From an uncultured Chlorobiaceae bacterium (GTDB taxonomy: Bacteria > Bacteroidota > Ignavibacteria > UBA10030 > SZUA-254): DNA of 64,000 nt. The notes beneath the pieces are model-generated. The model worked only from the letters and a program-made list of their open reading frames with translations. It had not been told where the DNA came from and did no database searches. The stretch spans positions 69,818 to 133,817 of the forward strand of contig CAZQSM010000001.1 of assembly GCA_964596065.1 (NCBI GenBank). Reading direction: 5' to 3'. Both the position numbers and the translations under genes were made by a program. Positions 1 to 28,592 of this stretch are shown one piece after another; within the stretch, counting starts at the first letter, position 1, and every line of letters starts with the position of its first letter.

Positions 1-203
1 GCCCGCCTGCCGAGGGAGACGAAGAGGGCGACAAACCCGGTGAGGACGAATCCGACGATGCCGATCATCGCCAGTATCGCCTTGTTCATCCCGTCGATCA
101 TCGGGCCCTCCGCCTGGCCGTAGCAGGTCGGGCAGGCCTGCGAGGTCGCGGCCGCGCCGACGAGGCAGAGCGCGCAGACGATGGCCAGTTTCCTTCCGCT
201 CAT
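1..203 (-). CDS. Partial small secreted/membrane protein with CPTC motif; N-terminus in window, continues past the left edge
   Basis: ATG (revcomp) at 201-203 directly abuts the stop of the 200..415 ORF. The translation begins MSGRKLAIVCALCLVGAAATSQACPTCYGQ, then a hydrophobic helix. It is the last visible gene of the cox operon. It is absent from the ORF track because it is truncated. Confidence 0.35.
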   Translation of the reverse strand, partial: MSGRKLAIVCALCLVGAAATSQACPTCYGQAEGPMIDGMNKAILAMIGIVGFVLTGFVALFVSLGRR

Positions 204-415
204 CGCGTCCGCGGTCCCGCGAGTGTCCGTGTCCGGCGATAGAACCGGACGCCGTAGATGGCCATCCCGATGGCCGCGGAGAGTGAGAGGAGGGCGGACG
301 CGGCGCTGATGAATCCGCCCTCGTCGAGGAACCGGGAGCCGAGCCAGGCCGCGAACCCGACCGCGAGCGCGGCCGAGCAGGAGACGAACAGGATGTGAAA
401 AAATCTAAGGGACAT
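200..415 (-). CDS. Small two-helix membrane protein, hypothetical (cox operon-associated)
   Basis: 71-aa ORF, two hydrophobic segments. It overlaps the coxIV stop by 11 nt and is followed immediately by the next ORF start. Confidence 0.4.
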   Translation of the reverse strand: MSLRFFHILFVSCSAALAVGFAAWLGSRFLDEGGFISAASALLSLSAAIGMAIYGVRFYRRTRTLAGPRTR

Positions 416-713
416 GTTTATAGATGATCGGATCCGAGGCGGCGAAGAGCGGCAACCACATCAGGACCGCGAAAAAGATGGCGGTCAGGATGAGCGACGC
501 GTAGATCACCTTCTTCTCGGATATGAGGTGCATGAAATAGGATGCCACCAGTCCCGCCTTGACCGTGGCGACGACGAGCGCGACGATGATCGCCTCCCGG
601 ACCTCCAGGTGGAGGTAAGAGACGGCCACGGTGACCATCGTGAGGACGAGCAGCGCGGCGAAGACCGCGATGTACGTCCGGACGTGTTTCCTGATGTCGT
701 GAGCGTGATCCAT
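405..713 (-). CDS. ctaF: Cytochrome c oxidase subunit IV (prokaryotic CtaF/CoxD-like)
   Basis: About 102 aa from internal Met MDHAHDIRKHV, three TM helices, conserved FMHL...E region typical of bacterial COX4. It lies 10 nt downstream of coxIII. Confidence 0.65.
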   Translation of the reverse strand: MDHAHDIRKHVRTYIAVFAALLVLTMVTVAVSYLHLEVREAIIVALVVATVKAGLVASYFMHLISEKKVIYASLILTAIFFAVLMWLPLFAASDPIIYKHVP

Positions 714-723
714 GCCGGTTTCC

Positions 724-1314
724 TTAGAGTAAATAGAGGACTGGAAAGAGGAATATCCACACCAGGTCGACAAAATGCCAGTAGAGCCCCGCGACTTCGA
801 CCCGGTTGGTGAACCGCTCGGGGTCGGTTTTCCACATCCTGCTCCCGGGACCCCAGAGATACCCGTTCACGATCATGCCGCCGATCACGTGGAGGCCGTG
901 CAGCCCCGTGAGAGTGAAGTAGATCGCGTAAAATGTCCCGGTCGACGGGTAGAGATGGTGCTCGAACTTGGCCCCGTACTCGATCGCCTTGATGATGAGG
1001 AATCCGACGCCGAGGAGGAAGGTGAGCCCCATGTAGAGCCGGTATTTCGAAAACGATTGCATCTTGAGGGACGCCCACGACATCACCATCGTGATGCTCG
1101 AGCTGATCAGGACCACCGTGTTGAGCGTCGCCAGGGGGACGTTCAGGATCGAACTGCCGTGCGGCCACTCGGGCGCTCCGACCCTCAGGAGGATGTAGGA
1201 AGTGAAGAGCGCCCCGAACAGCATCACCTCGGAGGCGAGGAAGAGCCAGATCCCGAGTTTCGCGTTGTAGAGGCCGGTGTCGGGCCTGGAATCGGACGTA
1301 TAGGGGATATCCAT
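724..1314 (-). CDS. ctaE: Cytochrome c oxidase subunit III
   Basis: C-terminal 196 aa of ORF 724..2553, from Met MDIPYTSDS. Multi-TM, with GLHGLHVIGG and LYWHFVDLVW motifs characteristic of COX3. The upstream part of that ORF is an out-of-frame shadow over coxI. Confidence 0.85.
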   Translation of the reverse strand: MDIPYTSDSRPDTGLYNAKLGIWLFLASEVMLFGALFTSYILLRVGAPEWPHGSSILNVPLATLNTVVLISSSITMVMSWASLKMQSFSKYRLYMGLTFLLGVGFLIIKAIEYGAKFEHHLYPSTGTFYAIYFTLTGLHGLHVIGGMIVNGYLWGPGSRMWKTDPERFTNRVEVAGLYWHFVDLVWIFLFPVLYLL

Positions 1315-1325
1315 TGGCTCCTGCC

Positions 1326-3221
1326 TTACGATGAGTGATTTTGGGGCGTGAAGTCGGTCCCGGCGCCCGGGATGCTGTACTCGTAGGGGCCGCGGTGCAC
1401 CACCGGGACCACCGCGAAATTCCCGTGCGCCACAGGGGGCGTGGGCGCCGCCGACCAGTCGAGCGTCGTCGCGTGCCAGTGGTTCTCGCCGGCGGCCTTG
1501 CCCGAGCGGAGGCTCAGGAAGAGATTGACGATGAAGACGACCTGGAAGAGCGCCATCGCCCAGGCCCCGACCGACATCCACTCGTTCAGGTAGAGCACGT
1601 CGAGCGCGTGCGCGTACTGGGTCCCGCCGTCGTAGAGCCGGCGCGACACGCCCGCGAGGCCCTGGATCAACATCGGGAAAAAGATGATGTTCATGCAGAC
1701 GAACGAACCCCAGAAGTGGATCTTCCCGGCCCGCTCGTTCAGGACCCGGCCGGTCACCTTCGGGAACCAGTAATAGATGCCCGCGAAGAGCGCGAAAATC
1801 GTGCCCGGAGCCACGACGTAGTGGAAATGGCCGATGACGTAGAGCGTGTCGTGGAGCGCGATGTCCGACGAGGTGAGACCGAGTGGGAGGCCGGTGAGGC
1901 CCCCGATTCCGAACATCGGGAGGAACGCGAGCGCGAAGAGCATCGGCGTGTTGAACCGGATCGAACCGCCGTAGAGGCTCATCAGGAGGACCGAAAGGAC
2001 GATCACCGAGGGTATGGAGATGATCATCGTCGTGGTCTGGAAGAAGGTGCTGATGGCCGTTCCCATGCCCGTCAGGAACATGTGGTGGGCCCAGACGATG
2101 AACGACGTGAAGCCGAGGAAGATGACGGCGTAGACGAGCGATTTGTATCCCCAGAGCGGTTTCCGGGTGTTGTTGGCGATGACTTCCGCCACGATGCCCA
2201 TCGCGGGGAGGATCAGGACGTACACCTCCGGGTGGGCGAGGAACCAGAACAGGTGCTGCCAGAGGAGCGGGCTGCCGCCCCCGGTGTGCTGGAGGAGTTC
2301 GCCGCTGACCACGAGGCCTGAGGGCATGAAGAAACTGGTGCCCGCGAGTCTGTCCATCAGCTGCAGGACGCCGGCCGCCTCGAGTGGCGGGAACGCCAGC
2401 AGGAGCAGGAAGGAGGTGACGAACTGGGCCCAGACGAAAAACGGGAGCCGCATGAAGGTGAGTCCCTTCGCGCGCAGCTGGATGATGGTGACGATGAAGT
2501 TCACCGAGCCGAGGAGTGACGACGTGATCAGGAGGACCATGCCGAGGAGCCACACCGTCTGCCCCGTGGTGGCGATGTTCGAGAGGGGGGGATACGACGT
2601 CCAGCCGGAATTGGCAGCGCCTCCCGGGACGAAGAAGCCCGCGAGCATCACCACCCCGCCCCCGAAATAGACCCAGTAGCTCATCATGTTCAGTTTCGGA
2701 AACGCCATGTCGGGCGCTCCGATCTGAAGAGGCATGACGTAATTGCCGAACGCGCCCACGGCGAGGGGAACGACGCCGAGGAAGACCATGATCGTCCCGT
2801 GCATCGCGCCGAGCGAATTATAAAACTCGGGAAGCATGATACCGTCGGGCATCACCGCCTCGTCGGTCGCGAGCCAGTAGACCAGCCAGCCCATCAGCAG
2901 AAACGTCGTCCCGACGACCGCGTGGATCCCCGCCCGGAGGCGGGAGAACCCGAGGATGATCAGCCCGACGGCGCCGAACGGCAGCGCGAACCGGAGGGCC
3001 GGCATCGGCTGCTCGGGGTAGGCGAGCTGCCACCGCATCATCATCATGAGTGTGAAGCCGAACAGGAGGAAGATCAGCGACGTGAGCCCGTACTGGATGC
3101 CGATGACCTTGTGATCGATGGAGAAGACGTATTTCCGGAGGAAACTTCCCTCGTGGTGCCCTGCGCTGCCGTGGCCGCGGGCGGAGTGGTCCGCCGCGGC
3201 CCTCGAGTGGGGATCGCTCAT
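1326..3221 (-). CDS. ctaD: Cytochrome c oxidase subunit I (A-type heme-copper oxidase)
   Basis: 631 aa, 12+ TM. Motifs GGGSPLLWQHLFWFLAHPEVY (CuB His and cross-linked Tyr), WAHHMF (CuB His-His), GHFHYV (heme His). Confidence 0.95.
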   Translation of the reverse strand: MSDPHSRAAADHSARGHGSAGHHEGSFLRKYVFSIDHKVIGIQYGLTSLIFLLFGFTLMMMMRWQLAYPEQPMPALRFALPFGAVGLIILGFSRLRAGIHAVVGTTFLLMGWLVYWLATDEAVMPDGIMLPEFYNSLGAMHGTIMVFLGVVPLAVGAFGNYVMPLQIGAPDMAFPKLNMMSYWVYFGGGVVMLAGFFVPGGAANSGWTSYPPLSNIATTGQTVWLLGMVLLITSSLLGSVNFIVTIIQLRAKGLTFMRLPFFVWAQFVTSFLLLLAFPPLEAAGVLQLMDRLAGTSFFMPSGLVVSGELLQHTGGGSPLLWQHLFWFLAHPEVYVLILPAMGIVAEVIANNTRKPLWGYKSLVYAVIFLGFTSFIVWAHHMFLTGMGTAISTFFQTTTMIISIPSVIVLSVLLMSLYGGSIRFNTPMLFALAFLPMFGIGGLTGLPLGLTSSDIALHDTLYVIGHFHYVVAPGTIFALFAGIYYWFPKVTGRVLNERAGKIHFWGSFVCMNIIFFPMLIQGLAGVSRRLYDGGTQYAHALDVLYLNEWMSVGAWAMALFQVVFIVNLFLSLRSGKAAGENHWHATTLDWSAAPTPPVAHGNFAVVPVVHRGPYEYSIPGAGTDFTPQNHSS

Positions 3222-3270
3222 GATCTGTCCTGGTAAGGTGACGGGATTGGCGTCGTGATATCGGGGAGGA

Positions 3271-3978
3271 TTACTTTCCCTCGAAGCTGAAGTCGGCGCT
3301 CTTCGTCCCGGTCGCGGGGACGGAGACCTTCATCGTCCTGGTGCCGTATTTTTCGTGCCACGCTTCGATTTCGTAATCGCCGGCCGGCAGATCGGGGATC
3401 GTGAATGTGCCCGTCTCGCCGGACACGGCGTAGAAGGGATGGTCCATCACGCCGACGTAGGCGGCCATCCAGTTGTGGACTTCGCACTTGATCTTCACCA
3501 TCACCTCGGGGCTCGAAAACGACTGCGTCATCTTCATCCCCTTTTTCGGCTGGGCGATGTTGAACTGCTTGCTGTTCTTCGGTAGGGCGTGGACGTTGTG
3601 CAGCGTCTCGTCACTGTTCGTAATTTCGATTTTCTGGTCCACCATCACGCCGAACACGTGGGGGGTGTACTGGCAGCCGCTCTGGTCGAATTTCGCCTTT
3701 TCCTTCGGGGCGGGATATTTTTTCTTCGCGAGGCCGCTCTTGACGTAGACGAAGACATTCGCCAGGGTGCCGTTGGGGTTGATCACCACCTGGTCGGAAA
3801 CCACGTCCTTGCCGGCGTGCATTTTTTCGCATTTCTTGTCGGCCGTCATTTTGATTTTCACCGGGGCCGGCTTCGCGCCTTTGAAGGCGACTTTTCCTTC
3901 AATGGATCCGGCGAGGGCGGCGCCGGCGAACAGCGTGAGGGAGAGAATGAGTGCTGACGGGAACGAAACGTTCTTCAT
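3271..3978 (-). CDS. Secreted cupredoxin-like (putative type-1 copper) protein with C-terminal carboxypeptidase-regulatory-like beta-sandwich; occupies the coxII position
   Basis: Signal peptide MKNVSFPSALILSLTLFAGAALA. Candidate copper ligands H(NVH)...C-E-V-H-N-W-M, an amicyanin-like C-x2-H-x2-M pattern. C-terminal GTFTIPDLPAGDYEIEAWHEKYG resembles CarboxypepD_reg. No TM helices and no CuA (C-x-E-x-C-G-x2-H-x2-M) motif. Confidence 0.5.
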   Translation of the reverse strand: MKNVSFPSALILSLTLFAGAALAGSIEGKVAFKGAKPAPVKIKMTADKKCEKMHAGKDVVSDQVVINPNGTLANVFVYVKSGLAKKKYPAPKEKAKFDQSGCQYTPHVFGVMVDQKIEITNSDETLHNVHALPKNSKQFNIAQPKKGMKMTQSFSSPEVMVKIKCEVHNWMAAYVGVMDHPFYAVSGETGTFTIPDLPAGDYEIEAWHEKYGTRTMKVSVPATGTKSADFSFEGK

Positions 3979-4092
3979 GATGGTGGATCTCCTGAAATGA
4001 TGGAAGAAACCTGTTTTACCCAACTTCCGGGGTTGTCGCAACTGGATGACGGAAGCCGATAACGGCAGATCGAACAGCCTTTATAATATCAA

Positions 4093-4108
4093 ATAAAATC
4101 GATTTTAT
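4093..4108. promoter_or_regulatory. Perfect 16-bp palindrome ATAAAATCGATTTTAT in the AT-rich divergent cox/hppA intergenic region
   Basis: Read directly from the sequence. It lies in an AT-rich stretch (about 4075-4125) of an otherwise GC-rich intergenic region between divergently transcribed operons. Confidence 0.4.
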
Positions 4109-4266
4109 CAACCCCGGGGTCACGTCATGGGCGAACGGGGCGGGAATCGGGATCCCGGACGTCCGACTGTTGCCAATTCCACATTTTTTCATTAGATTCC
4201 TCCCTCTTATATATAGCCACTCTGGATCCTTCACCTCTTACCAACATTATTTAACTCGGAGTCTTT

Positions 4267-6414
4267 GTGGAACTCAGTATCACTCTCGGCTGCAGCGTTT
4301 TCGCTCTCCTCTTCGCGCTCTATCTCTCACGATGGGTCCTCCGCCAGGATGACGGCACTCCGGCGATGCGGACGATCTCCGATGCCATCCGGGAGGGCGC
4401 CGAGGCGTTCCTTTCCAGGCAATACCGGACCATCCTGCTCCTCACCGTGCCGGTGGCCGCGGTCATCTACATCCTCTACGCGTTCATCAGGCCGGCGTCG
4501 CCCCACGACGCCGTTCCGGTGTCCGACCTCGCCCTCTACACGGCGGGGTCGTTCATCTTCGGCGCGATCTGCTCGGGCGTCGCTGGGTACGTCGGGATGT
4601 ACGTCTCCATCCGGGCGAACATCAGGACAGCGTCGGCGGCCCGGACCAGCATCAACCGGGGCCTGCGCATCGCGCTGCGCGGAGGCGCTGTCTCGGGGCT
4701 GTTCGTCGTGGCGATGAGCCTCCTCGGCGTGGGGGGACTCTACCTCCTCCTCTCCAGGCTCGGGGTGACCGACCACGACATCCCGCTCCTGATCGTCGGC
4801 TACGGATTCGGCGCCAGCTTCGTCGCGCTCTTCGCCCAGCTCGGCGGGGGCATCTTCACCAAGGCGGCCGACGTCGGGGCCGACCTGGTGGGAAAGGTCG
4901 AAGCGGGTATCCCGGAAGACGATCCGCGCAACCCCGCGGTCATCGCCGACCTGGTGGGCGACAACGTCGGAGACTGCGCCGGGCGCGGTGCCGATCTCTT
5001 CGAGTCGACCGCCGCCGAAAACATCGGGGCGATGATCCTCGGCGCGACGCTCGCGGCGAACGCCCAATCCCAGATGGGGATCACCTTCGCCGGGGGGGTG
5101 GTAGGGGTAATGCTCTTCCCGCTCGTCGCGCGGGCGTTCGGGCTCCTCGCGTCGATCATCGGCGTGATGGTCGTGAAGACGACCGAGGACGGCGACCCGA
5201 TGGAGGCGCTGAACAAGGGTTTCTACCTGACGACCGTCCTCGCGGCGATCGGGTTCGGCGTCGGCTGTTACTGGCTCCTCGACACCCCCCAGGCCCCGCA
5301 GGCCTGGTGGCATTTCTGGCTCTGCGGCCTCGTCGGGCTTGCGACAGCGATGGCATTCGTGTACATTACCCAGTATTACACCGAATACAAGTATCGTCCG
5401 GTGAAAGAGATCGCAGTCGCGTCACAAACGGGGCCGGCCACGAACATCATCGCGGGGTTCGCCGTTGCGCTTGAGTGTACGGCGCTTCCGGTGATGGTCA
5501 TCTCCGCCGCCATCCTCAGTTCCTACCACATCGGGCTTTCGAGCGGCCTGCCGAACGCCGGGCTCTTCGGCACCGCCGTCGCGACGATGGGAATGCTCGG
5601 GACGGCGGCGTACATCCTCGCCATGGACACCTTCGGCCCGATCGCAGACAACGCGGGGGGCATCATCGAGATGAGCCAGCAGCCCGAGGAGATCAGGAAG
5701 AAGACCGACCGGCTCGACGCCGTCGGAAACACCACGAAGGCGCTGACGAAGGGATACGCGATCGGCAGCGCGGCCCTGGCGGCGTTCCTCCTCTTTTCAG
5801 CGTATCTTGACGAGGTCGAACACTACAATCCCGGATTCGACCGCGTCATCAACATCGCCGAGCCGGAAATCTTCGTCGGTGGACTGCTCGGGGCCATGCT
5901 CATCTTCCTCTTCGCGGCGCTCGCCATCAGGGCCGTCGGGAAGGCCGCGTACTACGTCATCAACGAGGTCCGCCGCCAGTTCAGGGAAAACCCCGGCATC
6001 CTCCAGGGCACCGTCAAACCCGACTACCGGCAGGCCGTGGATATCGTGACGGCCGGAGCCCTCAAGGAAATGGTCCTTCCGGGAATCCTCGTCATCGCGA
6101 CCCCGATCGCGGTGGGCGTCATTTTCAAAATGTTCGGACTCGGCGCCCAGGCAGTGGCAGCCATGCTGATGGTCGGCACGATGGCCGGTATCCTGGTGGC
6201 CACGCTGCTCAATAACGGGGGCGGGGCATGGGACAACGCCAAGAAGTTCATCGAGACGGGCGAGTACGGCGGCAAGGGATCGGACACGCACAAGGCCGCC
6301 GTCGTCGGCGACACGGTGGGTGACCCGTTCAAGGACACGGCGGGGCCCTCCCTCCACGTCGTCATCAAGCTGCTCAGCACGATCACGCTCGTGCTCGCGC
6401 CGTTTTTTCTTTAG
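4267..6414 (+). CDS. hppA: Membrane-bound proton-translocating pyrophosphatase, K+-independent type
   Basis: 715 aa, GTG start. Motifs GDNVGDCAGRGADLFES, DAVGNTTKALTKGYAIGSAAL (Lys in GNTTKA marks K+ independence), GDTVGDPFKDTAGPS. Confidence 0.95.
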   Translation: MELSITLGCSVFALLFALYLSRWVLRQDDGTPAMRTISDAIREGAEAFLSRQYRTILLLTVPVAAVIYILYAFIRPASPHDAVPVSDLALYTAGSFIFGAICSGVAGYVGMYVSIRANIRTASAARTSINRGLRIALRGGAVSGLFVVAMSLLGVGGLYLLLSRLGVTDHDIPLLIVGYGFGASFVALFAQLGGGIFTKAADVGADLVGKVEAGIPEDDPRNPAVIADLVGDNVGDCAGRGADLFESTAAENIGAMILGATLAANAQSQMGITFAGGVVGVMLFPLVARAFGLLASIIGVMVVKTTEDGDPMEALNKGFYLTTVLAAIGFGVGCYWLLDTPQAPQAWWHFWLCGLVGLATAMAFVYITQYYTEYKYRPVKEIAVASQTGPATNIIAGFAVALECTALPVMVISAAILSSYHIGLSSGLPNAGLFGTAVATMGMLGTAAYILAMDTFGPIADNAGGIIEMSQQPEEIRKKTDRLDAVGNTTKALTKGYAIGSAALAAFLLFSAYLDEVEHYNPGFDRVINIAEPEIFVGGLLGAMLIFLFAALAIRAVGKAAYYVINEVRRQFRENPGILQGTVKPDYRQAVDIVTAGALKEMVLPGILVIATPIAVGVIFKMFGLGAQAVAAMLMVGTMAGILVATLLNNGGGAWDNAKKFIETGEYGGKGSDTHKAAVVGDTVGDPFKDTAGPSLHVVIKLLSTITLVLAPFFL

Positions 6415-6558: not shown

Positions 6559-7158
6559 ATGAACCACATCATCACATTCCTCCGTCGGTTCGTCGTCACG
6601 CTGTCGGCGGCCGTCTGTAGTCTCGTCCTCGCGGCCGGGTGCCAGAAACCGGCGCCCCCCGAACCCTCTCCGGTCGAGCGCGGGAAATATCTGACCACGC
6701 TGATGGGCTGCGAGGATTGTCACTCCCCGAAGGTGATGGATCCGAAGCTCGGACCGGTCCCGGATACGACGAAAACGCTCTCGGGCCAGCCGGTCGACGC
6801 CCCGGTCCCCCAATGGACCCCGGCGGACATGATGACCCGGAACAACGTCGCCTCCACCAACATGCATTTCACCGCCTGGGCGGGCCCCTGGGGGGTCAGT
6901 TTCACGGCCAACCTCACGCCGGACAAGGAAACCGGGCTCGGCGAGTGGACGGAGGAATCGTTCATCCAGGCGATCAGGACGGGTAAGCATCAGGGTCAGC
7001 CGAACGGGAGGGAGATCCTTCCGCCGATGCCCTGGCCGATGATCCGGCAGGCTTCCGACGCCGACCTGAAGGCGATCTGGGCGTACCTCCGGTCTATTCC
7101 GGCGGTGAAAAATCAGGTCCCCCTCCCCGTGCCCCCGCCGGAGGCACCCGCGAACTGA
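6559..7158 (+). CDS. Monoheme c-type cytochrome, lipoprotein
   Basis: Signal/lipobox LVLAAGC; single CxxCH (GCEDCHSP); 199 aa. Its stop overlaps the start of the downstream cupredoxin-like gene. Confidence 0.8.
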   Translation: MNHIITFLRRFVVTLSAAVCSLVLAAGCQKPAPPEPSPVERGKYLTTLMGCEDCHSPKVMDPKLGPVPDTTKTLSGQPVDAPVPQWTPADMMTRNNVASTNMHFTAWAGPWGVSFTANLTPDKETGLGEWTEESFIQAIRTGKHQGQPNGREILPPMPWPMIRQASDADLKAIWAYLRSIPAVKNQVPLPVPPPEAPAN

Positions 7159-7952
7159 TGGCCCCGGGCAACTGGGCCTTCCTGGCGCTCCTGGCCGGGT
7201 CCGTGTCACTCGGCGGTTGCGGCAGGGGAGGCGATGCTTCCCCTGCCCCTGGCGCGGTCCCCGCCCGTGAGGCCGCGGCATCCGGTTCACCTTCCGCGGT
7301 CGCCGGAAGCTTCAGCGGCAGGGTGGTATACGACGGCCCGCGCCCGGCACGCCAGAAATTACTCGTGGTGAAGGACGTCGAGGTGTGCGGAAGGATCGAC
7401 CACCGTGACGACCGGCTCGTGGTCGACGACCGTGGCGCCATCCGTTACGCCGTGGTTTCCGTCCGCGGCGTGGTCAAGAAGTCCAGCGCGTCAGCGGAAA
7501 CGGGCGAATATCTCCTCGACCAGCGCGCCTGCGCCTACGAGCCGCACGTGATCATCGTGCCGGTCGGACGGCCTCTGCGGATCCATAACAGCGACGGGAT
7601 CCTCCATAACGTCCATACCTACAGCACGCTCAACAGGCCGTTCAACCTCGCGCAGCCGAAGGGCCTCCGGATCCTCGAGAAGACGTTCGCCTTCCCGGAG
7701 CGGATCGGCGTACGGTGTGACGTGCACGGCTGGATGAGTTCCTGGGTCATCGTGGTGGAGGACGGCTATAACGCCGTGACCGATGAAACAGGCAGGTTCG
7801 ACATCCAGGGCATACCGCCGGGACGCTACACCGCCGTCTGCTGGCAGGAACAGCTCGGTGAACTCTCCGCCGAAATCGTCGTCGAGGGGGACGGCCCCGC
7901 GTTCCACCATTTTACCTACCACGCTCCGCCGGACCCCGCGGGGCTTAACTGA
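7158..7952 (+). CDS. Cupredoxin-like/CarboxypepD_reg-like lipoprotein, paralog of 3271..3978
   Basis: Shares NSDGILHNVH, C-A-Y-E-P-H-V and C-D-V-H-G-W-M patterns with the cox-linked paralog. Lipobox SLGGC. C-terminal TDETGRFDIQGIPPGRYTAV beta-sandwich motif. The tgATGg start overlaps the cytochrome c stop by 1 nt. Confidence 0.5.
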   Translation: MAPGNWAFLALLAGSVSLGGCGRGGDASPAPGAVPAREAAASGSPSAVAGSFSGRVVYDGPRPARQKLLVVKDVEVCGRIDHRDDRLVVDDRGAIRYAVVSVRGVVKKSSASAETGEYLLDQRACAYEPHVIIVPVGRPLRIHNSDGILHNVHTYSTLNRPFNLAQPKGLRILEKTFAFPERIGVRCDVHGWMSSWVIVVEDGYNAVTDETGRFDIQGIPPGRYTAVCWQEQLGELSAEIVVEGDGPAFHHFTYHAPPDPAGLN

Positions 7953-20826: not shown

Positions 20827-21978
20827 TTGAACATCGGAGTACCGAAGGAAATCGCGCCCGGCGAGACGAGGGTGGCGCTCACCCCGGCGGCCGTCAAAAT
20901 GATGGTCCGTGACGGACACCAGGTCCTCGTCCAGGCCGGGGCAGGCTCGTCGGCGCTGATTCCCGACGCGGAATACACGCAGGCCGGGGCGAGGGTCGTG
21001 CGTAATGCCGAGGAGACATACGGCGGGGCGGAAATGATCGTCAAGGTGCGTAGTCCGCGGCAGCAGGACGGAATCGACGAGGCGGGGCTGGTCCCGAAGG
21101 AGGGGGTCTACGTCGGGTTCCTTTCACCGCTCGGCGCGAAGGAGACGGTGAAGCGGTTTCTCGAGCGGAAGATCACGAGCTTCTCCATGGAATACGTCCC
21201 GCGCATCACCAGGGCGCAGTCGATGGACGCGCTCAGTTCGATGGCAACCATCGCGGGCTACAAATCTGTCCTGATGGCCGCCGACAGGCTGCACAAGATC
21301 TTCCCCCTGATGATGACCGCCGCGGGGACCATTTCTCCCGCGACGGTGCTGGTCCTCGGCGCGGGGGTGGCCGGCCTCCAGGCGATCGCGACCGCGAAGC
21401 GCCTCGGGGCCAGGGTCGAGGCCTTCGATCCGCGCCCGGCAGTGATGGAACAGGTGAAAAGCCTCGGCGCAACGTTCGTGGAGATGGAGATGCCTGCCGA
21501 CGCGGAAACCGCGGGCGGGTACGCGAAGGAGCTGTCCCCGGAGTTCATCAAAAAAGAGATGGAAGCGATCGGCTCGAGGCTCCCGAAGGCCGATGTCGTG
21601 ATCACCACGGCCCAGGTGTTCGGGAAACAGGCCCCGCTCCTGGTCACCGAGGCGATGGTCAGGATGCTCAAGCCTGGTTCCGTCATCGTCGACCTCGCCG
21701 CCGAGCAGGGGGGCAACTGCGAGCTCACCCAGGCGGGAAAGGACGTCGAACACCACGGCGTCACGATCATCGGGGCGGTGAACGTCCCGGCGATGATCCC
21801 GGTCGATTCCAGCCAGATGTACGCGAAAAACCTCCTGAACCTCTTCCAGTATCTCTACAAGAAGGGAACCGACGGCCCGGACTTCTCCGACGACATCCCG
21901 AAGGGATGCTGCATCACCCGGGGCGGAGAGATCGTCAACGAGTCATTCAAGGCCGCGTACGCGGCCGGAGGGCGCTGA
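20827..21978 (+). CDS. pntAA: NAD(P) transhydrogenase subunit alpha part 1
   Basis: MNIGVPKEIAPGETRVALTP...; Rossmann motif VLVLGAGVAGLQAIATAKRLGA. Confidence 0.9.
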   Translation: MNIGVPKEIAPGETRVALTPAAVKMMVRDGHQVLVQAGAGSSALIPDAEYTQAGARVVRNAEETYGGAEMIVKVRSPRQQDGIDEAGLVPKEGVYVGFLSPLGAKETVKRFLERKITSFSMEYVPRITRAQSMDALSSMATIAGYKSVLMAADRLHKIFPLMMTAAGTISPATVLVLGAGVAGLQAIATAKRLGARVEAFDPRPAVMEQVKSLGATFVEMEMPADAETAGGYAKELSPEFIKKEMEAIGSRLPKADVVITTAQVFGKQAPLLVTEAMVRMLKPGSVIVDLAAEQGGNCELTQAGKDVEHHGVTIIGAVNVPAMIPVDSSQMYAKNLLNLFQYLYKKGTDGPDFSDDIPKGCCITRGGEIVNESFKAAYAAGGR

Positions 21979-21979
21979 T

Positions 21980-22273
21980 ATGAGCGAAACATTGATGGTG
22001 TCCATTACGATCTTCACGCTCGCCACCTTCATCGGCATCGAGGTGATCTCCAAGGTGCCGCCGCTGCTCCACACGCCTCTGATGTCGGGGTCCAACGCCA
22101 TCTCGGGCATCACGGTGGTCGGCTCGCTCATCGCGGCCGGCGAAGGGCACGGGGAACTGAGCGTCGTCCTCGGGATGATCGCGGTCATCTGCGCGACGAT
22201 CAACGTCGTCGGCGGCTTCCTTGTCACCGACAGGATGCTGAAGATGTTCAAACGGGAACCAAAGGAAAAGTAA
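21980..22273 (+). CDS. pntAB: NAD(P) transhydrogenase subunit alpha part 2 (membrane)
   Basis: 97 aa, three TM segments, immediately between pntAA and pntB. Confidence 0.85.
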   Translation: MSETLMVSITIFTLATFIGIEVISKVPPLLHTPLMSGSNAISGITVVGSLIAAGEGHGELSVVLGMIAVICATINVVGGFLVTDRMLKMFKREPKEK

Positions 22274-22279
22274 ACCACC

Positions 22280-23674
22280 ATGGACATTTTCACATCGTTC
22301 GCCTATCTCGTCGCGGCAGTCTTTTTCATCATCGGGCTGAAACTCCTCAGTTCCCCGCGCACGGCGAGGACGGGAAATTTCACCGGGGCGCTGGGGATGC
22401 TCATCGCCATCGTCGTCACCCTGCTCGACCGGTCGATCCTGGATTACACGTTCATCATCACGGGCCTGGTGGCCGGGAGCGCCATCGGCGCGATCCTGGC
22501 GTACAAGGTCGAAATGACCGCGATGCCCCAGATGGTCGGCCTCCTGAACGGGTTCGGCGGAGCGGCGTCGACGCTCGTCGCCTACGCCGAATACCTCAGG
22601 ATGATGTCGGAGAGCTCCCCGCTGCAACCGGCCGGCACGCCGGACGTATGGGTGACGCTCTCCCTGAGCGTCCTGATCGGGACCATCACCTTCACGGGGA
22701 GCATGGTCGCCTTCGTCAAGCTCCAGGGACTGATGAAGAGCGCCCCCGTCCTCTACCGGATGCAGAAACAAACGAACGCGCTGATGCTGCTGGCGATGAT
22801 CGCGTGCATCGTCGCCTTCGTCGCCGACCCGTTCCAGGCGTGGCCGCTGCTGGCCATCCTGGTGATCTCGGCGGTCCTGGGGATCACGAGCGTGATCCCG
22901 ATCGGCGGCGCCGACATGCCGGTGGTCATCTCGCTGCTGAACTCCTACAGCGGCCTCGCCGCCGCGATGACCGGGTTCGTCATCAACAACAGCGTGCTGA
23001 TCGTCAGCGGGACGCTCGTCGGGACGTCCGGGATCATCCTCACGCAGATCATGTGCAAGGCGATGAACCGCTCGATCCTGAATGTCCTCTTCGCCGGCGT
23101 CGGCGCGGACTACTCCGGCGGCGCCACCGAAACCGTCGAGCGGACCGTGGTCCGGTACACGCCCGACGACGCGGCCTTCATCCTCGAAAACGCCCAGTCG
23201 ATCGTCATCGTCCCCGGATATGGCCTCGCCGTTGCGCAGGCCCAGCACGTCCTGCAGGAAATCGCCAACATCCTGACGACATCCGGCCGGAGCGTCCGGT
23301 ACGCGATCCACCCCGTGGCCGGCAGGATGCCCGGGCACATGAACGTGCTCCTGGCGGAGGCGAACGTCCCGTACGACCACCTCTTCGAAATGGACCAGAT
23401 CAACGACGACTTCCAGACCACCGACGTCGCGCTCGTCGTCGGGGCCAACGACGTCGTCAACCCGGCCGCGCGCTCAAAGAAGGAGAGCCCCCTCTACGGC
23501 ATGCCGATCCTGAATGTCGACCAGGCCGCGACCGTCATGGTGCTCAAGCGGAGCCTCAATCCCGGTTTCGCGGGGGAGGACAACGACCTCTTCTACGACA
23601 AGAAAACGATGATGGTGTTCGGGGACGCGAAGGGGACGCTCACGAAACTTCTCCAGATCCTCAAGCAGTCGTAA
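22280..23674 (+). CDS. pntB: NAD(P) transhydrogenase subunit beta
   Basis: 464 aa, N-terminal multi-TM domain plus C-terminal NADP(H)-binding domain (GYGLAVAQAQH). Confidence 0.9.
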   Translation: MDIFTSFAYLVAAVFFIIGLKLLSSPRTARTGNFTGALGMLIAIVVTLLDRSILDYTFIITGLVAGSAIGAILAYKVEMTAMPQMVGLLNGFGGAASTLVAYAEYLRMMSESSPLQPAGTPDVWVTLSLSVLIGTITFTGSMVAFVKLQGLMKSAPVLYRMQKQTNALMLLAMIACIVAFVADPFQAWPLLAILVISAVLGITSVIPIGGADMPVVISLLNSYSGLAAAMTGFVINNSVLIVSGTLVGTSGIILTQIMCKAMNRSILNVLFAGVGADYSGGATETVERTVVRYTPDDAAFILENAQSIVIVPGYGLAVAQAQHVLQEIANILTTSGRSVRYAIHPVAGRMPGHMNVLLAEANVPYDHLFEMDQINDDFQTTDVALVVGANDVVNPAARSKKESPLYGMPILNVDQAATVMVLKRSLNPGFAGEDNDLFYDKKTMMVFGDAKGTLTKLLQILKQS

Positions 23675-25926: not shown

Positions 25927-27837
25927 ATGGACTCACTCCGCCATCTGAAGCTTCTCCACGAGGCGTTGTCACACCCCCAGGATCAGGTCCGGACCCGGAG
26001 GTACGCGATACCGGGGCGATGGTTTCCCACCGGCCACCGGGCCTCCCCGGCATCCCGTGATCCGTTCGCACTGTACGCGTCGGTAACCGGCGCGGTCCTC
26101 AATGCCGATCCCGTTCCGCTCTGCGGCTCCGGCCAAACGGGGGGAGGGTGGTGCAGGGAAGCGGTCGTGTACAATATGCTGGTCAGGCTCACCTGTGCCT
26201 ACGACCACGACGGCGACGGCGTCCTCGGCCTGCCAGTCAACGGCGACGGTTGGAGGGAGACCGGTTCCTTCCTGAAGGCGATCGCCATCCTTCCCTACAT
26301 CCGGTCCCTCGGCGCGAACACGATCCATCTCCTCCCGGTGCAGCAGATCGGAATGGACGGCAGGAGGGGGACGCTGGGATCTCCGTACGCCGTGCGGGAT
26401 CCCCTCGCGATCGACCCGTCGCTCGGGGAACCGAACACCGGCGTCCCGGCCATGACAGAGTTCGCCGCCTTCCTGGAAGCCGCACGGCATTCGGGCTTTC
26501 GCGTTATCGTCGAAATACCGTTAAGAACTCTCAGTAAAGACGCTGCCTGGGTTGAAGATAACCCGGAATGGTTCTATTGGATTCGATCCGACCGAAAATT
26601 CGCCCCGCCCAGGTTTGACCGTGAGGAGATAGCGGCTGCGACGCGGAAGATCGAGGCCGGGGACCGCGAGGGGTTGCCCCCCCCGTCAGCGGAATACCGG
26701 GGGATCTTCACGGCTCCGCCGCAGAGGGGTGCGGTGCGCCTGGATGGGGTCCGGTGGAGCGGCACTTTGCCGGACGGTCAAGGGGTCGTCGTCCCGGGCG
26801 CCTTCGCCGACTGGCCGCCCGACGACCACCAGCCGGTCTGGGACGACGTCACCTACCTGAAATTGTATCAGGACCCCCGGTTCAACTACCCGGCCTATAA
26901 CACTGTGAGGATGTATGATTCAAGCCTTCTCCATGGAGATTCAGCAACAGCAACATTGTGGGAAAAACTGGGATCCGTCGTAGCGGCGTACGCGGGGATG
27001 ACGGGGGTCGACGGGATCATGATCGACATGGCCCACGCGCTCCCGGAACCACTCGTACGCAGGCTCGTCGCCGGGGCGAGGGATATCAATCCCGGATTTT
27101 CCTTCTGGGCGGAGGATTTTTCGAGGACTCCCGGCCAGGTCAGTGTCGGATTCGACGCGGTCCTGGGGGGACAGTGGGCCTGCCAGCACAATCCGGTCGA
27201 TTTTGCCTCGATGCTCGATTGGATCTCCGGGACACCCCAACTGCTCCCGCACCTCGCGACACCGGAGACGCACAACACCCCCAGGGCCGCCGGCAGGAAG
27301 TGGGGCGCACGCTACTCCCGATATGCCTGGACGATCAGTTGTTTCATCCCCGGCATCCCTTTCATCCATTCAGGTTTTGAGTTATACGAAATCCGGCCGG
27401 TCAATACAGGACTTGGCTTTACCCCCCGGGAGCTCGCCTCGTTTCCAACTGAAGAACTTCCTCTTTTCAGTCCTCACGCTCTCTCCTGGAGTCAGGCAGA
27501 TGCGACGGTCGAGTGGGTGGCCCGTCCGCTCGGTATCAGGGCCCGATTCAACGATTGCATCCTCCCGGTCGTTGGGGCGGAATGCCGCATCGTCGACCCG
27601 GGCGACCGGCGCGTCCTCGCGTTCATCCGGTCGAACCGAAACTCGGGCCATTCCCTCCTGATTGTGGGCAACAGCGACCTGGAGCATCGTGTCGATTTCA
27701 CCCTCCGGGGGGTCACTCCCCGGGGCGGGTCGTGGACCGACCTGCTCTCGGGAGAATCGATCGGGGGTTTCCCCGGCGGCGTCAACGGGGGCCTCGATCC
27801 CGGCCAGGTCTTCGTCTTCGAACTGACGGGGTCCTGA
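25927..27837 (+). CDS. GH13 alpha-amylase-family enzyme
   Basis: GSFLKAIAILPYIRSLGANTIHLLPV, GSPYAVRDPLAIDPSLG, and catalytic region GVDGIMIDMAHALP. Start at Met MDSLRHL, 9 nt after glgP; the ORF-track 5' extension overlaps glgP. Confidence 0.7.
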   Translation: MDSLRHLKLLHEALSHPQDQVRTRRYAIPGRWFPTGHRASPASRDPFALYASVTGAVLNADPVPLCGSGQTGGGWCREAVVYNMLVRLTCAYDHDGDGVLGLPVNGDGWRETGSFLKAIAILPYIRSLGANTIHLLPVQQIGMDGRRGTLGSPYAVRDPLAIDPSLGEPNTGVPAMTEFAAFLEAARHSGFRVIVEIPLRTLSKDAAWVEDNPEWFYWIRSDRKFAPPRFDREEIAAATRKIEAGDREGLPPPSAEYRGIFTAPPQRGAVRLDGVRWSGTLPDGQGVVVPGAFADWPPDDHQPVWDDVTYLKLYQDPRFNYPAYNTVRMYDSSLLHGDSATATLWEKLGSVVAAYAGMTGVDGIMIDMAHALPEPLVRRLVAGARDINPGFSFWAEDFSRTPGQVSVGFDAVLGGQWACQHNPVDFASMLDWISGTPQLLPHLATPETHNTPRAAGRKWGARYSRYAWTISCFIPGIPFIHSGFELYEIRPVNTGLGFTPRELASFPTEELPLFSPHALSWSQADATVEWVARPLGIRARFNDCILPVVGAECRIVDPGDRRVLAFIRSNRNSGHSLLIVGNSDLEHRVDFTLRGVTPRGGSWTDLLSGESIGGFPGGVNGGLDPGQVFVFELTGS

Positions 27838-27848
27838 CAGGAGGGCGC

Positions 27849-28592
27849 ATGTGCGGACGGTTCACCATCACGACGGACAGGGTCGAATTCATCCTGAAGA
27901 AGTTCCACGCCATCCCTGCCACCGGTTTCAACGGGATCACGCCGCGGTACAACGCCTCCCCGGGGCAGCTTGTCCCCGCCATCGTCGCGAAGGAGGACGG
28001 GGTCCGATACCTCACCGACGTCCTCTGGGGCTTCGTCCCCCCCTGGGGGGAGGAGAAGGGGGAGGCGGGATACCAGATCAACATCCGCGACGATACGATC
28101 GCGCGCAACAAGTTCTTCCGGTCGCGCCTCCTCTCGGGCCGCTGCGTCCTCCTGGCGGACGGATTCTACGAGTGGCGGAAGCCGCCCGGCTTCGAGCACC
28201 TCCCACGCGGGAAGAGGCTCCCGAAGGGGGTACGGAAAGTTCCGCACAGGATCGTCCTCTCGGACCGCAAACCATTCGCCCTCGCCGGACTCTGGCGCAC
28301 TGTCGACATCAATGCAAAGCACGTCCTGACCGCGGGGATCATTACCACGTCCCCCAACGCCCTGGTCGCGCCGATCCATGACCGGATGCCGGTGATCCTC
28401 GACGACCGCGATCTTTCGCTCTGGCTCGACCCCCGCTCCGACGACTTCGACGCGCTCCACAGCCTGCTCGACCCATATCCCGCCGGGGAGATGGAGGCCT
28501 ATGCGGTTTCCGACGCGGTGAACAACAGCCGGAACGACGTCATCGCCTGTATCGCCCCGGCGGATGATCCGCCGGCTCCGCGGAAGCGTTGA
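27849..28592 (+). CDS. yedK: SOS-response-associated peptidase (SRAP / YedK / HMCES family), abasic-site sensor
   Basis: Begins MCGRFTI (catalytic Cys2 after Met1), about 247 aa, conserved SRAP core. True start 12 nt after the GH13 stop. The 3' end overlaps the convergent PolB gene by about 53 nt. Confidence 0.85.
   Translation: MCGRFTITTDRVEFILKKFHAIPATGFNGITPRYNASPGQLVPAIVAKEDGVRYLTDVLWGFVPPWGEEKGEAGYQINIRDDTIARNKFFRSRLLSGRCVLLADGFYEWRKPPGFEHLPRGKRLPKGVRKVPHRIVLSDRKPFALAGLWRTVDINAKHVLTAGIITTSPNALVAPIHDRMPVILDDRDLSLWLDPRSDDFDALHSLLDPYPAGEMEAYAVSDAVNNSRNDVIACIAPADDPPAPRKR

Follow-up and report, generated by a model that had tools for sequence, protein, structure and literature searches.

The 64-kb window analyzed here is the whole 64,000-nucleotide stretch between positions 69,818 and 133,817 of contig CAZQSM010000001.1, from an uncultured Chlorobiaceae bacterium. 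It opens with part of a heme-copper oxidase operon whose first gene encodes a cupredoxin-like protein, here termed CUP. The minus strand from 1 to 4041 forms one tightly packed gene string, with CUP first and a small open reading frame (ORF) containing a CPTCYG motif last. CUP (3271..3978, minus strand) is an ORF for a signal-peptide protein of 235 amino acids (aa). It is followed on the same strand by three structural genes: coxI (1326..3221), encoding an A-family catalytic subunit of 631 aa (Pfam COX1, E 2e-131); coxIII (724..1314), encoding a subunit of the five-helix type with 196 aa (Pfam COX3, E 9e-21; CtaE/CyoC-like in NCBIfam); and coxIV (405..713), encoding 102 aa (Pfam COX4_pro, E 1e-12; TIGR02229 caa3_sub_IV above cutoff). 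The string ends with two smaller genes, also on the minus strand. A conserved 71-aa ORF (200..415) encodes a protein with two transmembrane segments and has an orthologue at the same position in the related loci L001, L003 and L005. The last ORF (1..203; the CPxC ORF) encodes a small membrane protein, and its ATG at 203 overlaps the preceding stop codon (ATGA). Neither small ORF matched a family in Pfam or NCBIfam. The ORFs and Pfam matches bear out the gene order given in a first-pass annotation of the same DNA (cupredoxin-like gene, coxI, coxIII, coxIV, small ORF, CxxC ORF).

The same annotation placed CUP first after a divergent intergenic region, which is also correct: a 288-bp gap of lower GC content separates CUP from the divergent H+-PPase gene (4267..6414). 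An AGGAG ribosome-binding site lies ahead of the CUP ATG. About 105 nt upstream of this ATG is a sigma-70-like promoter candidate (4083..4111, minus strand), TTGATA-17 nt-TATTAT with an upstream TG. The scan for sigma-70-like sites, whose coverage excludes Bacteroidota-type promoters, returned 2 sites compared with 1.2 ± 1.2 expected in shuffles; this is not significant alone and constitutes weak evidence.

Searches of the 64-kb window for a CuA motif (six frames) or a COX2 domain were negative throughout, and the operon had been described as one without coxII. This impression arises because the window start cuts the operon inside the CPxC ORF. The ORF has no stop codon up to position 1; 67 of its codons lie in the window, compared with 87–100 aa in the orthologues of relatives. 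The closest relative found, L005 (GCA_031379665.1), shares the gene order of the window to either side of the intergenic region. Its proteins are 91% (H+-PPase), 79% (cytochrome c), 54% (CUP paralogue), 81% (CUP), 88% (CoxI), 90% (CoxIII) and 77% (CoxIV) identical to those of the window. L001 and L003 have the gene order of L005, and their CUP proteins are 64% and 66% identical to that of the window, respectively. The best identities were 80% in the CoxIII-based metagenome scan and 63% in the GTDB scan. In L001, L003 and L005, the full operon reads CUP-coxI-coxIII-coxIV-71-aa ORF-CPxC ORF-coxII-ctaA-ctaB-ABC transporter-SCO1-DUF420, with full-length CPxC orthologues (87–100 aa) directly ahead of coxII.

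The gene that follows the CPxC ORF in L005 (14036-15388) encodes a CoxII protein of 450 aa. It aligns with subunit II of R. sphaeroides (E 1.4e-14) over both transmembrane helices and the cupredoxin domain; DVIH falls on the CuA histidine and CAQLCGLGHYRM on CSELCGISHAYM of the R. sphaeroides protein. By this alignment, the L005 protein is a genuine subunit II with two predicted transmembrane helices and a complete CuA loop. The arrangement recurs among the 70 loci in which coxIII-coxIV is visible and at least 1.2 kb follows it: coxII lies within 1.5 kb downstream in 60 of them, and in most of the other 10 it precedes coxI. A CxxC[FYW]G ORF stands between coxIV and coxII in 48 of the 60. The order of this oxidase clade is coxI-coxIII-coxIV-two small ORFs-coxII, and the window stops within the second small ORF. 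Judging by this synteny, coxII almost certainly begins about 60 nt past window position 1 in the source genome, and the claim that the operon lacks it reflects a window edge. In the relatives, coxII is followed by ctaA and ctaB, the genes for heme A supply on which the ‘aa3’ label would rest; this region is outside the window. The gene string at 1-4041 probably represents the promoter-proximal genes of a heme-A oxidase operon that is long but otherwise ordinary and is interrupted by the start of the window.

Two features of the downstream half deserve mention. The 71-aa two-helix ORF and the CP(S/T)C(F/Y)G ORF of the coxIV-coxII interval could encode extra subunits or assembly factors for copper or thiol handling. 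Between ctaB and SCO1, an ABC transporter pair (ABC_tran and ABC2_membrane) is kept in L005 (17378-19212), L001 and L003; it may function in heme or copper handling.

The CUP protein combines an export signal with two β-sandwich domains. A Sec signal peptide was read from the sequence (aa 1–23; 3910..3978, minus strand), with a predicted cleavage site ALA|GS and no lipobox cysteine. Small-x-small residues followed by glycine are kept at this site across the family alignment, and the N-terminal helix 6–17 has low predicted local distance difference test (pLDDT) values in the AlphaFold2 model. The cupredoxin domain (aa ~95–178; 3445..3696, minus strand) was delimited by invariant columns, a profile match and Foldseek. 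Invariant columns also mark the candidate copper ligands, namely H127 (nt 3598-3600, minus strand) and the loop C165-E-V-H168-N-W-M171 (nt 3466-3486, minus strand). The C-terminal strands (aa 182–231; 3286..3435, minus strand) form a CarboxypepD_reg-like, transthyretin-like β-sandwich according to PF13620 and the DSSP strands. The PF13620 match of CUP is partial (HMM, i.e. hidden Markov model, positions 30–80 of 82) and falls at the threshold (E 1.4e-7; 32.2 bits compared with a cutoff of 32.3); relatives of CUP are recorded with the same family. In the model, the N-terminal strand (aa 23–33) probably completes this domain as its missing first strand, and the cupredoxin would therefore be inserted into the sandwich.

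The proposed copper site is highly conserved. In an alignment of 30 family members, which takes in a CUP paralogue of the window that is only ~30% identical, H127, N128, H130, C165, H168, W170, M171 and C102 are invariant. The His...Cys-x2-His-x2-Met motif noticed at first pass is thus real, with all four positions invariant in the 30 members. Among ORFs of at least 80 aa in the six frames of the 64 kb, C..H..M occurs in only two, CUP and its paralogue. The AlphaFold2 model built from the alignment (pLDDT 91, predicted template modeling score 0.85) has a cupredoxin fold. Foldseek returned 66 matches in the PDB at E <= 0.001, and the top 50 listed are dominated by cupredoxins; the leading matches (E 6e-6 to 5e-4) are a NirK cupredoxin domain, the Nitrosopumilus protein 5fc9, amicyanin, pseudoazurin, plastocyanin and a B. 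anthracis Cupredoxin_1 protein. A profile of the CUP family matched 5fc9 (E 0.0034), with H, C and H aligned with its ligands.

Curated cupredoxin models behave differently. PF13473 and PF00127 gave no match to the window CUP at E <= 0.1, and a tandem relative, P0126, matched PF13473 only below cutoff (E 1.8e-4). The family is too divergent for curated cupredoxin HMMs, and neither Pfam nor NCBIfam returned a named or cupredoxin family for CUP. Other copper folds were also searched for. CUP has no COX2_TM match, showing one N-terminal hydrophobic stretch only, followed by the AxA|G cleavage site. The binuclear CuA motif H...C-x-E/Q-x-C-x3-H-x2-M is absent from the protein, which has a single loop cysteine (CEVHNWM). 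PF04314 and PF02630, representing PCuAC and Sco, did not match at E <= 0.1. A second metal site formed by C50, H53, C102 and H107 was considered and rejected, as H53 and H107 are not conserved; the conserved Cys50/Cys102 pair is more likely a disulfide. We infer that CUP is a Sec-exported, periplasmic type-1 (blue) copper protein, predicted to bind copper. The alignment, AlphaFold2 fold, Foldseek matches and 5fc9 profile support the earlier description of a type-1 cupredoxin with a signal peptide, fused to a CarboxypepD_reg-like sandwich.

The CUP family is large and widely distributed. It yielded 7484 matches at E <= 1e-5 among clusters of 90% identity, nearly all of ~235 aa, and about 3100 clusters of 50% identity with E <= 1e-30. 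Some members carry the JGI label “plastocyanin”. Public annotation of CUP is generic because curated cupredoxin HMMs miss the protein. No description of the family was found in the literature searched, though coverage of that literature was incomplete and the result is an absence of evidence. The curA cupredoxin of Myxococcus is unrelated to CUP. A GTDB scan identified 586 relatives, and genomic context was counted in the best 80 of these 586 loci. These include Ignavibacteria/Bacteroidota, Omnitrophota, Planctomycetota, Acidobacteriota (Thermoanaerobaculia, Terriglobia), Gemmatimonadota, Calditrichia, Zixibacteria, Bdellovibrionota and others, covering at least ten phyla overall.

In every GTDB locus examined whose downstream sequence is long enough, CUP precedes coxI, coxII or ctaA-ctaB and shares their strand, and it is the first gene of the cox/cta block where no cytochrome c genes precede. 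Three types of context can be distinguished. In type A, which is that of the window, CUP is followed by coxI-coxIII-coxIV-x-x-coxII-ctaA-ctaB. In type B, it is followed by coxII-coxI-..., and in type C by ctaA-ctaB(-SCO1), with cox genes nearby or elsewhere. Given the type B order, in which the same gene directly precedes a normal coxII in other phyla, CUP does not stand in for or replace subunit II. The earlier suggestion that the cupredoxin takes the position of coxII is therefore not upheld. Unconventional electron entry, which had been raised alongside it, is not indicated, as the relatives’ operons contain a CuA-bearing coxII. The CoxII proteins of these clusters have no CxxCH heme c domain, and as a result an external electron donor is needed.

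Genes upstream of CUP suggest such a donor in many relatives. Among the 65 GTDB loci in which at least 3 kb of sequence precedes CUP, a multiheme cytochrome c gene ends <700 nt upstream of it in 25, and a full Rieske/cytochrome b module is also found upstream in 23 of those 25. About ten further loci (Gemmatimonadota, Omnitrophota, Planctomycetota) have a diheme cytochrome c-EB_dh gene directly upstream. In all, 35 of the 65 loci have CUP flanked by cytochrome c genes on one side and cox genes on the other.

CUP is also found tethered or fused to the oxidase itself. Profile searches identified proteins with CUP at the N-terminus of CoxII (CUP::CoxII; P0132, P0273-P0284), with CUP at the C-terminus of CoxII by way of an acidic linker (CoxII::CUP; P0156, P0271, P0272), and with CUP joined to CoxIV through a Pro/Ala-rich linker (CoxIV::CUP; P0197). 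Other forms are anchored by an N-terminal transmembrane segment with Pro-rich linkers (P0134, P0137, P0142, P0151, P0183). The fusion sequences read keep both type-1 (T1) and CuA ligands. The first examples were each singleton clusters, and a second search, seeded with P0156, added two CoxII::CUP clusters (P0271, P0272) and at least 12 diverged CUP::CoxII clusters (P0273-P0284). An origin of the fusions as gene-calling artefacts was rejected, with more than 12 diverged fused clusters found and one of them present on 16 contigs. The latter, P0276, is a CUP::CoxII protein of Omnitrophica. Its locus on a metagenome contig (L167, 884-15264) reads Rieske - cytochrome b (N) - cytochrome b (C) - 951-aa eight-heme cytochrome c - free CUP - CUP::CoxII - CoxI - CtaA - CtaB - CoxIII - ... 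- SCO1 - DUF420. The four genes at its head form the Rieske/cytochrome b/multiheme module that also stands directly ahead of CUP in 23–25 of the 65 GTDB loci. The upstream cytochrome modules and the fusions to oxidase subunits thus place CUP where c-type cytochromes meet the oxidase, and it has repeatedly become attached, by tether or fusion, to the predicted periplasmic face of the enzyme.

The window itself contains a cytochrome c gene with a second CUP gene beside it. A monoheme cytochrome c lipoprotein (6559..7158, plus strand; lipobox LAAGC, heme motif CEDCH, Pfam Cytochrom_C) is similar to cytochrome c subunits found in membrane dehydrogenases (8hdd_B, E 2.5e-25). It is followed by the CUP paralogue (7158..7952, plus strand), a protein of 264 aa that has a lipobox, LGGC, and keeps LHNVH and CDVHGWM. 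The paralogue’s start overlaps the cytochrome c stop (TGATG), which suggests that the two are translationally coupled, and the pair is kept in L005. The two proteins may form a membrane-anchored redox pair, encoded upstream of CUP. The lipoprotein cytochrome c and the lipoprotein CUP paralogue are the nearest candidate donors in the window.

On the basis of these findings, we consider it likely that CUP serves as a dedicated electron carrier to the CuA site of the oxidase. Copper binding, the direction of electron transfer and the partners of CUP are predicted from sequence. Of the possibilities raised at first pass, a dedicated electron shuttle is the one that has been strengthened, both by the CoxII and CoxIV fusions and by the position of CUP between cytochrome c and cox genes. 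According to this proposal, reduced c-type cytochromes would pass one electron to the T1 copper of CUP. The donor in many relatives would be the multiheme subunit of the Rieske/cytochrome b complex, and in the source genome it may be the neighboring lipoprotein cytochrome c together with the CUP paralogue. CUP would then dock on subunit II and reduce CuA, from which the electron would move onward to heme a and then to heme a3-CuB. CUP would thereby do what the fused cytochrome c domain does for caa3 oxidases, or what AcoP, auracyanin, sulfocyanin or plastocyanin does in other systems.

The functionally closest of these proteins is AcoP, which is encoded in the oxidase (rus) operon just upstream of coxB; CUP is likewise a cupredoxin encoded in a cox operon. 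AcoP of A. ferrooxidans is a periplasmic mononuclear cupredoxin with His/Cys/His/Met ligands that interacts with an aa3 oxidase and is reduced by a cytochrome c; whether it acts as an electron donor, a protective (chaperone) partner or both is debated (PMC10804444). The two proteins differ in several respects. AcoP is a single-domain, membrane-anchored green copper protein of acidophiles, whereas CUP has a cleavable signal peptide, an additional CarboxypepD_reg-like sandwich and a ligand loop of amicyanin length, and occurs in neutrophilic Bacteroidota/Ignavibacteria, Acidobacteriota, Gemmatimonadota, Planctomycetota and Omnitrophota. The transmembrane anchor of AcoP is absent from the window CUP, although anchored variants exist in the CUP family. 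No AcoP chain was retrieved at E <= 1 when the CUP family profile was searched against a copy of the PDB in which the presence of AcoP is unverified.

A parallel in architecture is provided by the cytochrome c domain of caa3 subunit II (Thermus, Bacillus, Rhodothermus; PDB 2yev), an electron-entry module that may be free, tethered or fused. CUP is similarly free, anchored in the membrane, or fused to either terminus of CoxII. Its redox center, in contrast, is a predicted type-1 copper in a cupredoxin fold rather than heme c, and it is also fused to CoxIV (P0197). The classical small cupredoxins resemble CUP in fold: amicyanin, pseudoazurin and plastocyanin matched with Foldseek E 3e-5 to 5e-4 and target template modeling scores of ~0.6–0.7. 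The LHNVH ... C-E-V-H-N-W-M of CUP shares its HNVH ... C-x2-H-x2-M ligand pattern with amicyanin (MPHNVH ... CTPHPFM). However, identity to these proteins is only 15–20%, and CUP has ~70 N-terminal and 55 C-terminal extra residues that form the second β-sandwich, as well as the Cys50/Cys102 pair.

Blue copper proteins are thought to link a quinol-oxidizing complex to a heme-copper oxidase, in place of a soluble cytochrome c, in several organisms; examples are auracyanin (Chloroflexus), sulfocyanin SoxE (Sulfolobus) and halocyanin (Natronomonas). The location of CUP between Rieske/cytochrome b-multiheme c genes and cox genes in 23–25 of the 65 loci is comparable. These proteins differ from CUP in lineage and anchoring and have no second domain. 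Finally, PCuAC and Sco1 are, like CUP, periplasmic β-sandwich proteins encoded with cox genes, and bind copper via His/Met or Cys/His; CUP differs in having neither the H(M)x10Mx21HxM nor the CxxxC motif. A separate SCO1 gene is present in the CUP operon of relatives (L005).

Several observations weigh against an electron-carrier role for CUP. Where oxidase loci were retrieved via CoxIII alone and had enough upstream sequence, CUP was present in 11 of 19; its absence from 8 of these independently sampled loci indicates that it is frequent, not obligatory. No Rieske/cytochrome b module lies ahead of CUP in the window or the closest relatives, and the donor proposed here is a guess. The coxII gene of the source genome is placed by synteny with relatives, outside the window, and the cupredoxin Pfam models fail to match CUP. 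Further points would favor a different function, in which CUP is a copper chaperone, assembly factor or protective factor for CuA/CuB, akin to the ‘chaperone’ view of AcoP or as a substitute for PCuAC or Cox11. In ~30 of the 80 GTDB loci (type C), CUP stands directly before the biogenesis genes ctaA-ctaB(-SCO1) and not before structural genes. SCO1 and DUF420 are present in the clusters inspected (relatives including L001, L003 and L005), but genes for Cox11/CtaG or PCuAC are not. Sites built from Cys, His and Met can, in addition, be used to handle Cu(I), and AcoP has been proposed to preserve the metal centers of its oxidase (PMC10804444). We nevertheless regard a chaperone function, the main alternative to the carrier role, as less likely. 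The HNVH ... C-x2-H-x2-M ligands, loop and fold of CUP are those of amicyanin-type electron-transfer sites, and there is no PCuAC or Sco match in Pfam. Proteins in which CUP is permanently joined to CoxII or CoxIV, with both copper sites kept, are easier to explain if CUP is an electron-entry domain than if it is a chaperone that acts transiently, and the position between cytochrome c and cox genes in over half of the loci with sufficient upstream sequence also speaks against this function.

The remaining alternatives are less probable still. CUP could be a periplasmic carrier for another partner, such as a copper nitrite reductase, N2O reductase or metal-oxidation pathway, and merely be co-regulated with the oxidase. 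Pseudoazurin and amicyanin serve partners other than oxidases, the top Foldseek match is the NirK cupredoxin domain, and the window’s second module of cytochrome c and CUP paralogue is unlinked to cox genes. Against this, the covalent fusions involve oxidase subunits II and IV specifically, and all GTDB loci inspected link CUP to cox/cta genes, with no nir or nos genes adjoining it, making this explanation improbable. It is more improbable again that CUP is an unrelated secreted, copper-free β-sandwich protein whose motif and location are coincidental. In favor of that possibility, the only Pfam matches are of CarboxypepD_reg type and at threshold, and the NCBI label of relatives is ‘carboxypeptidase regulatory-like domain-containing protein’. 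However, the confident model resembles cupredoxins, the four ligand positions are invariant even in the 30%-identical paralogue, and conserved synteny and fusions speak against coincidence. The first-pass annotation had itself linked this outcome to a canonical coxII elsewhere and a protein without a cupredoxin fold; a canonical coxII does exist, but the fold was found. Equally improbable is an oxidase truly without subunit II, in which soluble CUP replaces that subunit as the electron-entry component. Though the window contains no CuA motif or COX2 domain and CUP holds the operon’s first position, the window edge cuts the operon within an ORF, and in all syntenic relatives whose sequence extends far enough, coxII comes two small genes after coxIV. 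Moreover, CUP has a cleavable signal peptide and a single loop cysteine, with neither transmembrane helices nor CuA, and stands directly ahead of a normal coxII in other phyla. The claim of a heme-copper oxidase working without subunit II fails and should not be propagated.

The oxidase served by CUP in the window is of the A family. CoxI contains H140, HPEVY (aa 330–334), HHMF (379–382) and GHFHYV (464–469), and thus the six His ligands, cross-link Tyr and helix-VI Glu (XGHPEVY) are all present. Its matches in the PDB are aa3 oxidases (E 1e-111), and it scores 565 bits with TIGR02891, under the cutoff of 671. Assignment as a nitric oxide reductase (NOR)-type enzyme was rejected on account of the cross-link Tyr (HPEVY) and complete set of CuB His ligands. 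The Asp at the D-channel entrance is present (Asp171 in APDMAFP, aa 169–175). In contrast to R. sphaeroides K362 and bovine K319, the K-channel lysine position is occupied by Val408 (codon 1998..2000, minus strand), as determined by alignment to the aa3-600 oxidase (IPSVIVL vs IPTGVKIF). Of 87 related CoxI sequences (loci L001-L166), 60 have I, V or L at this position. Loss of the lysine co-occurs with the coxI-first order and a CAQLCG loop in CoxII, with Gln for the Mg-ligand Glu; coxII-first oxidases of the same data set keep the lysine, and most have CAELCG. This loss is probably not new, given that Degli Esposti et al. (PMC8239418) mention several family-A lineages that have lost the K-channel. 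A study of respiration in Melioribacter roseus concerns a different oxidase, of the A2-type cc(o/b)o3, and the window’s oxidase clade is outside the coverage of a paper on NOR diversity.

CoxI and CoxII of this subclade contain insertions. Between helices I and II, CoxI has a segment (aa ~72–131; 2829..3008, minus strand; PDB alignment split at 71/132) that is ~40 residues longer than in relatives. By hydropathy, its hydrophobic segments 74–95 and 97–117 flank a basic SRLRAGIH, and the insertion may form an extra transmembrane hairpin. It is found only in a subclade: the DHK-to-HG spacing is 105 in the window’s subclade and 62–68 in most relatives. The CoxII protein of L005 (~450 aa) has a ~185-aa insertion between the CuA His and Cys loop, compared with total lengths of 260–330 aa in others of the clade. 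This insertion consists of three tandem repeats of ~48 aa each, with pairwise z = 5–11 compared with shuffles.

In its broadest form, our proposal is that CUP represents a large two-domain class of type-1 copper proteins that replaces soluble cytochrome c between Rieske/cytochrome b-multiheme complexes and heme-A oxidases in at least ten phyla. In Omnitrophota, among other lineages, this class would have become part of the enzyme, forming a ‘T1Cu-CuA’ subunit II, and in the window’s clade it would serve an A-family oxidase without the K-channel lysine. We hold this wider statement to be evenly balanced between true and false. If true, the fused ‘T1Cu-CuA’ subunit II would be a copper analogue of caa3 oxidases. 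Thousands of genes labelled ‘carboxypeptidase regulatory-like domain protein’ or ‘hypothetical’ probably encode blue-copper partners of aa3-type oxidases, and the operon position of CUP, with its natural fusions to subunits II and IV, offers a testable proposal for the electron route to CuA. The groups concerned (Ignavibacteria/Bacteroidota, Acidobacteriota, Gemmatimonadota, Planctomycetota, Omnitrophota) are largely uncultured, and soils and sediments contain them in abundance. If the proposal is confirmed, aerobic respiration in these organisms would be gated by copper availability and not by heme c biogenesis. The operon itself is ordinary; CUP is of moderate interest, being widespread, poorly annotated and naturally fused to oxidase subunits.

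Elsewhere, the window encodes a range of other functions. Genes for the proton-translocating transhydrogenase PntA and PntB (20827-23674, plus strand) occur in the same window as that for H+-PPase (4267-6414). Two separate family-B DNA polymerase genes lie within 11 kb of one another (28540-30912 and 39099-41486, both minus strand), adjoined by a gene for an SRAP (SOS-response peptidase) protein (27513-28592). The remaining genes are of a housekeeping nature and include those for a GH5-type (cellulase-family) glycoside hydrolase, asparaginase, prolyl oligopeptidase, glucan phosphorylase, a class I tRNA synthetase of the Glu/Gln type, NadA, aconitase and Acs.

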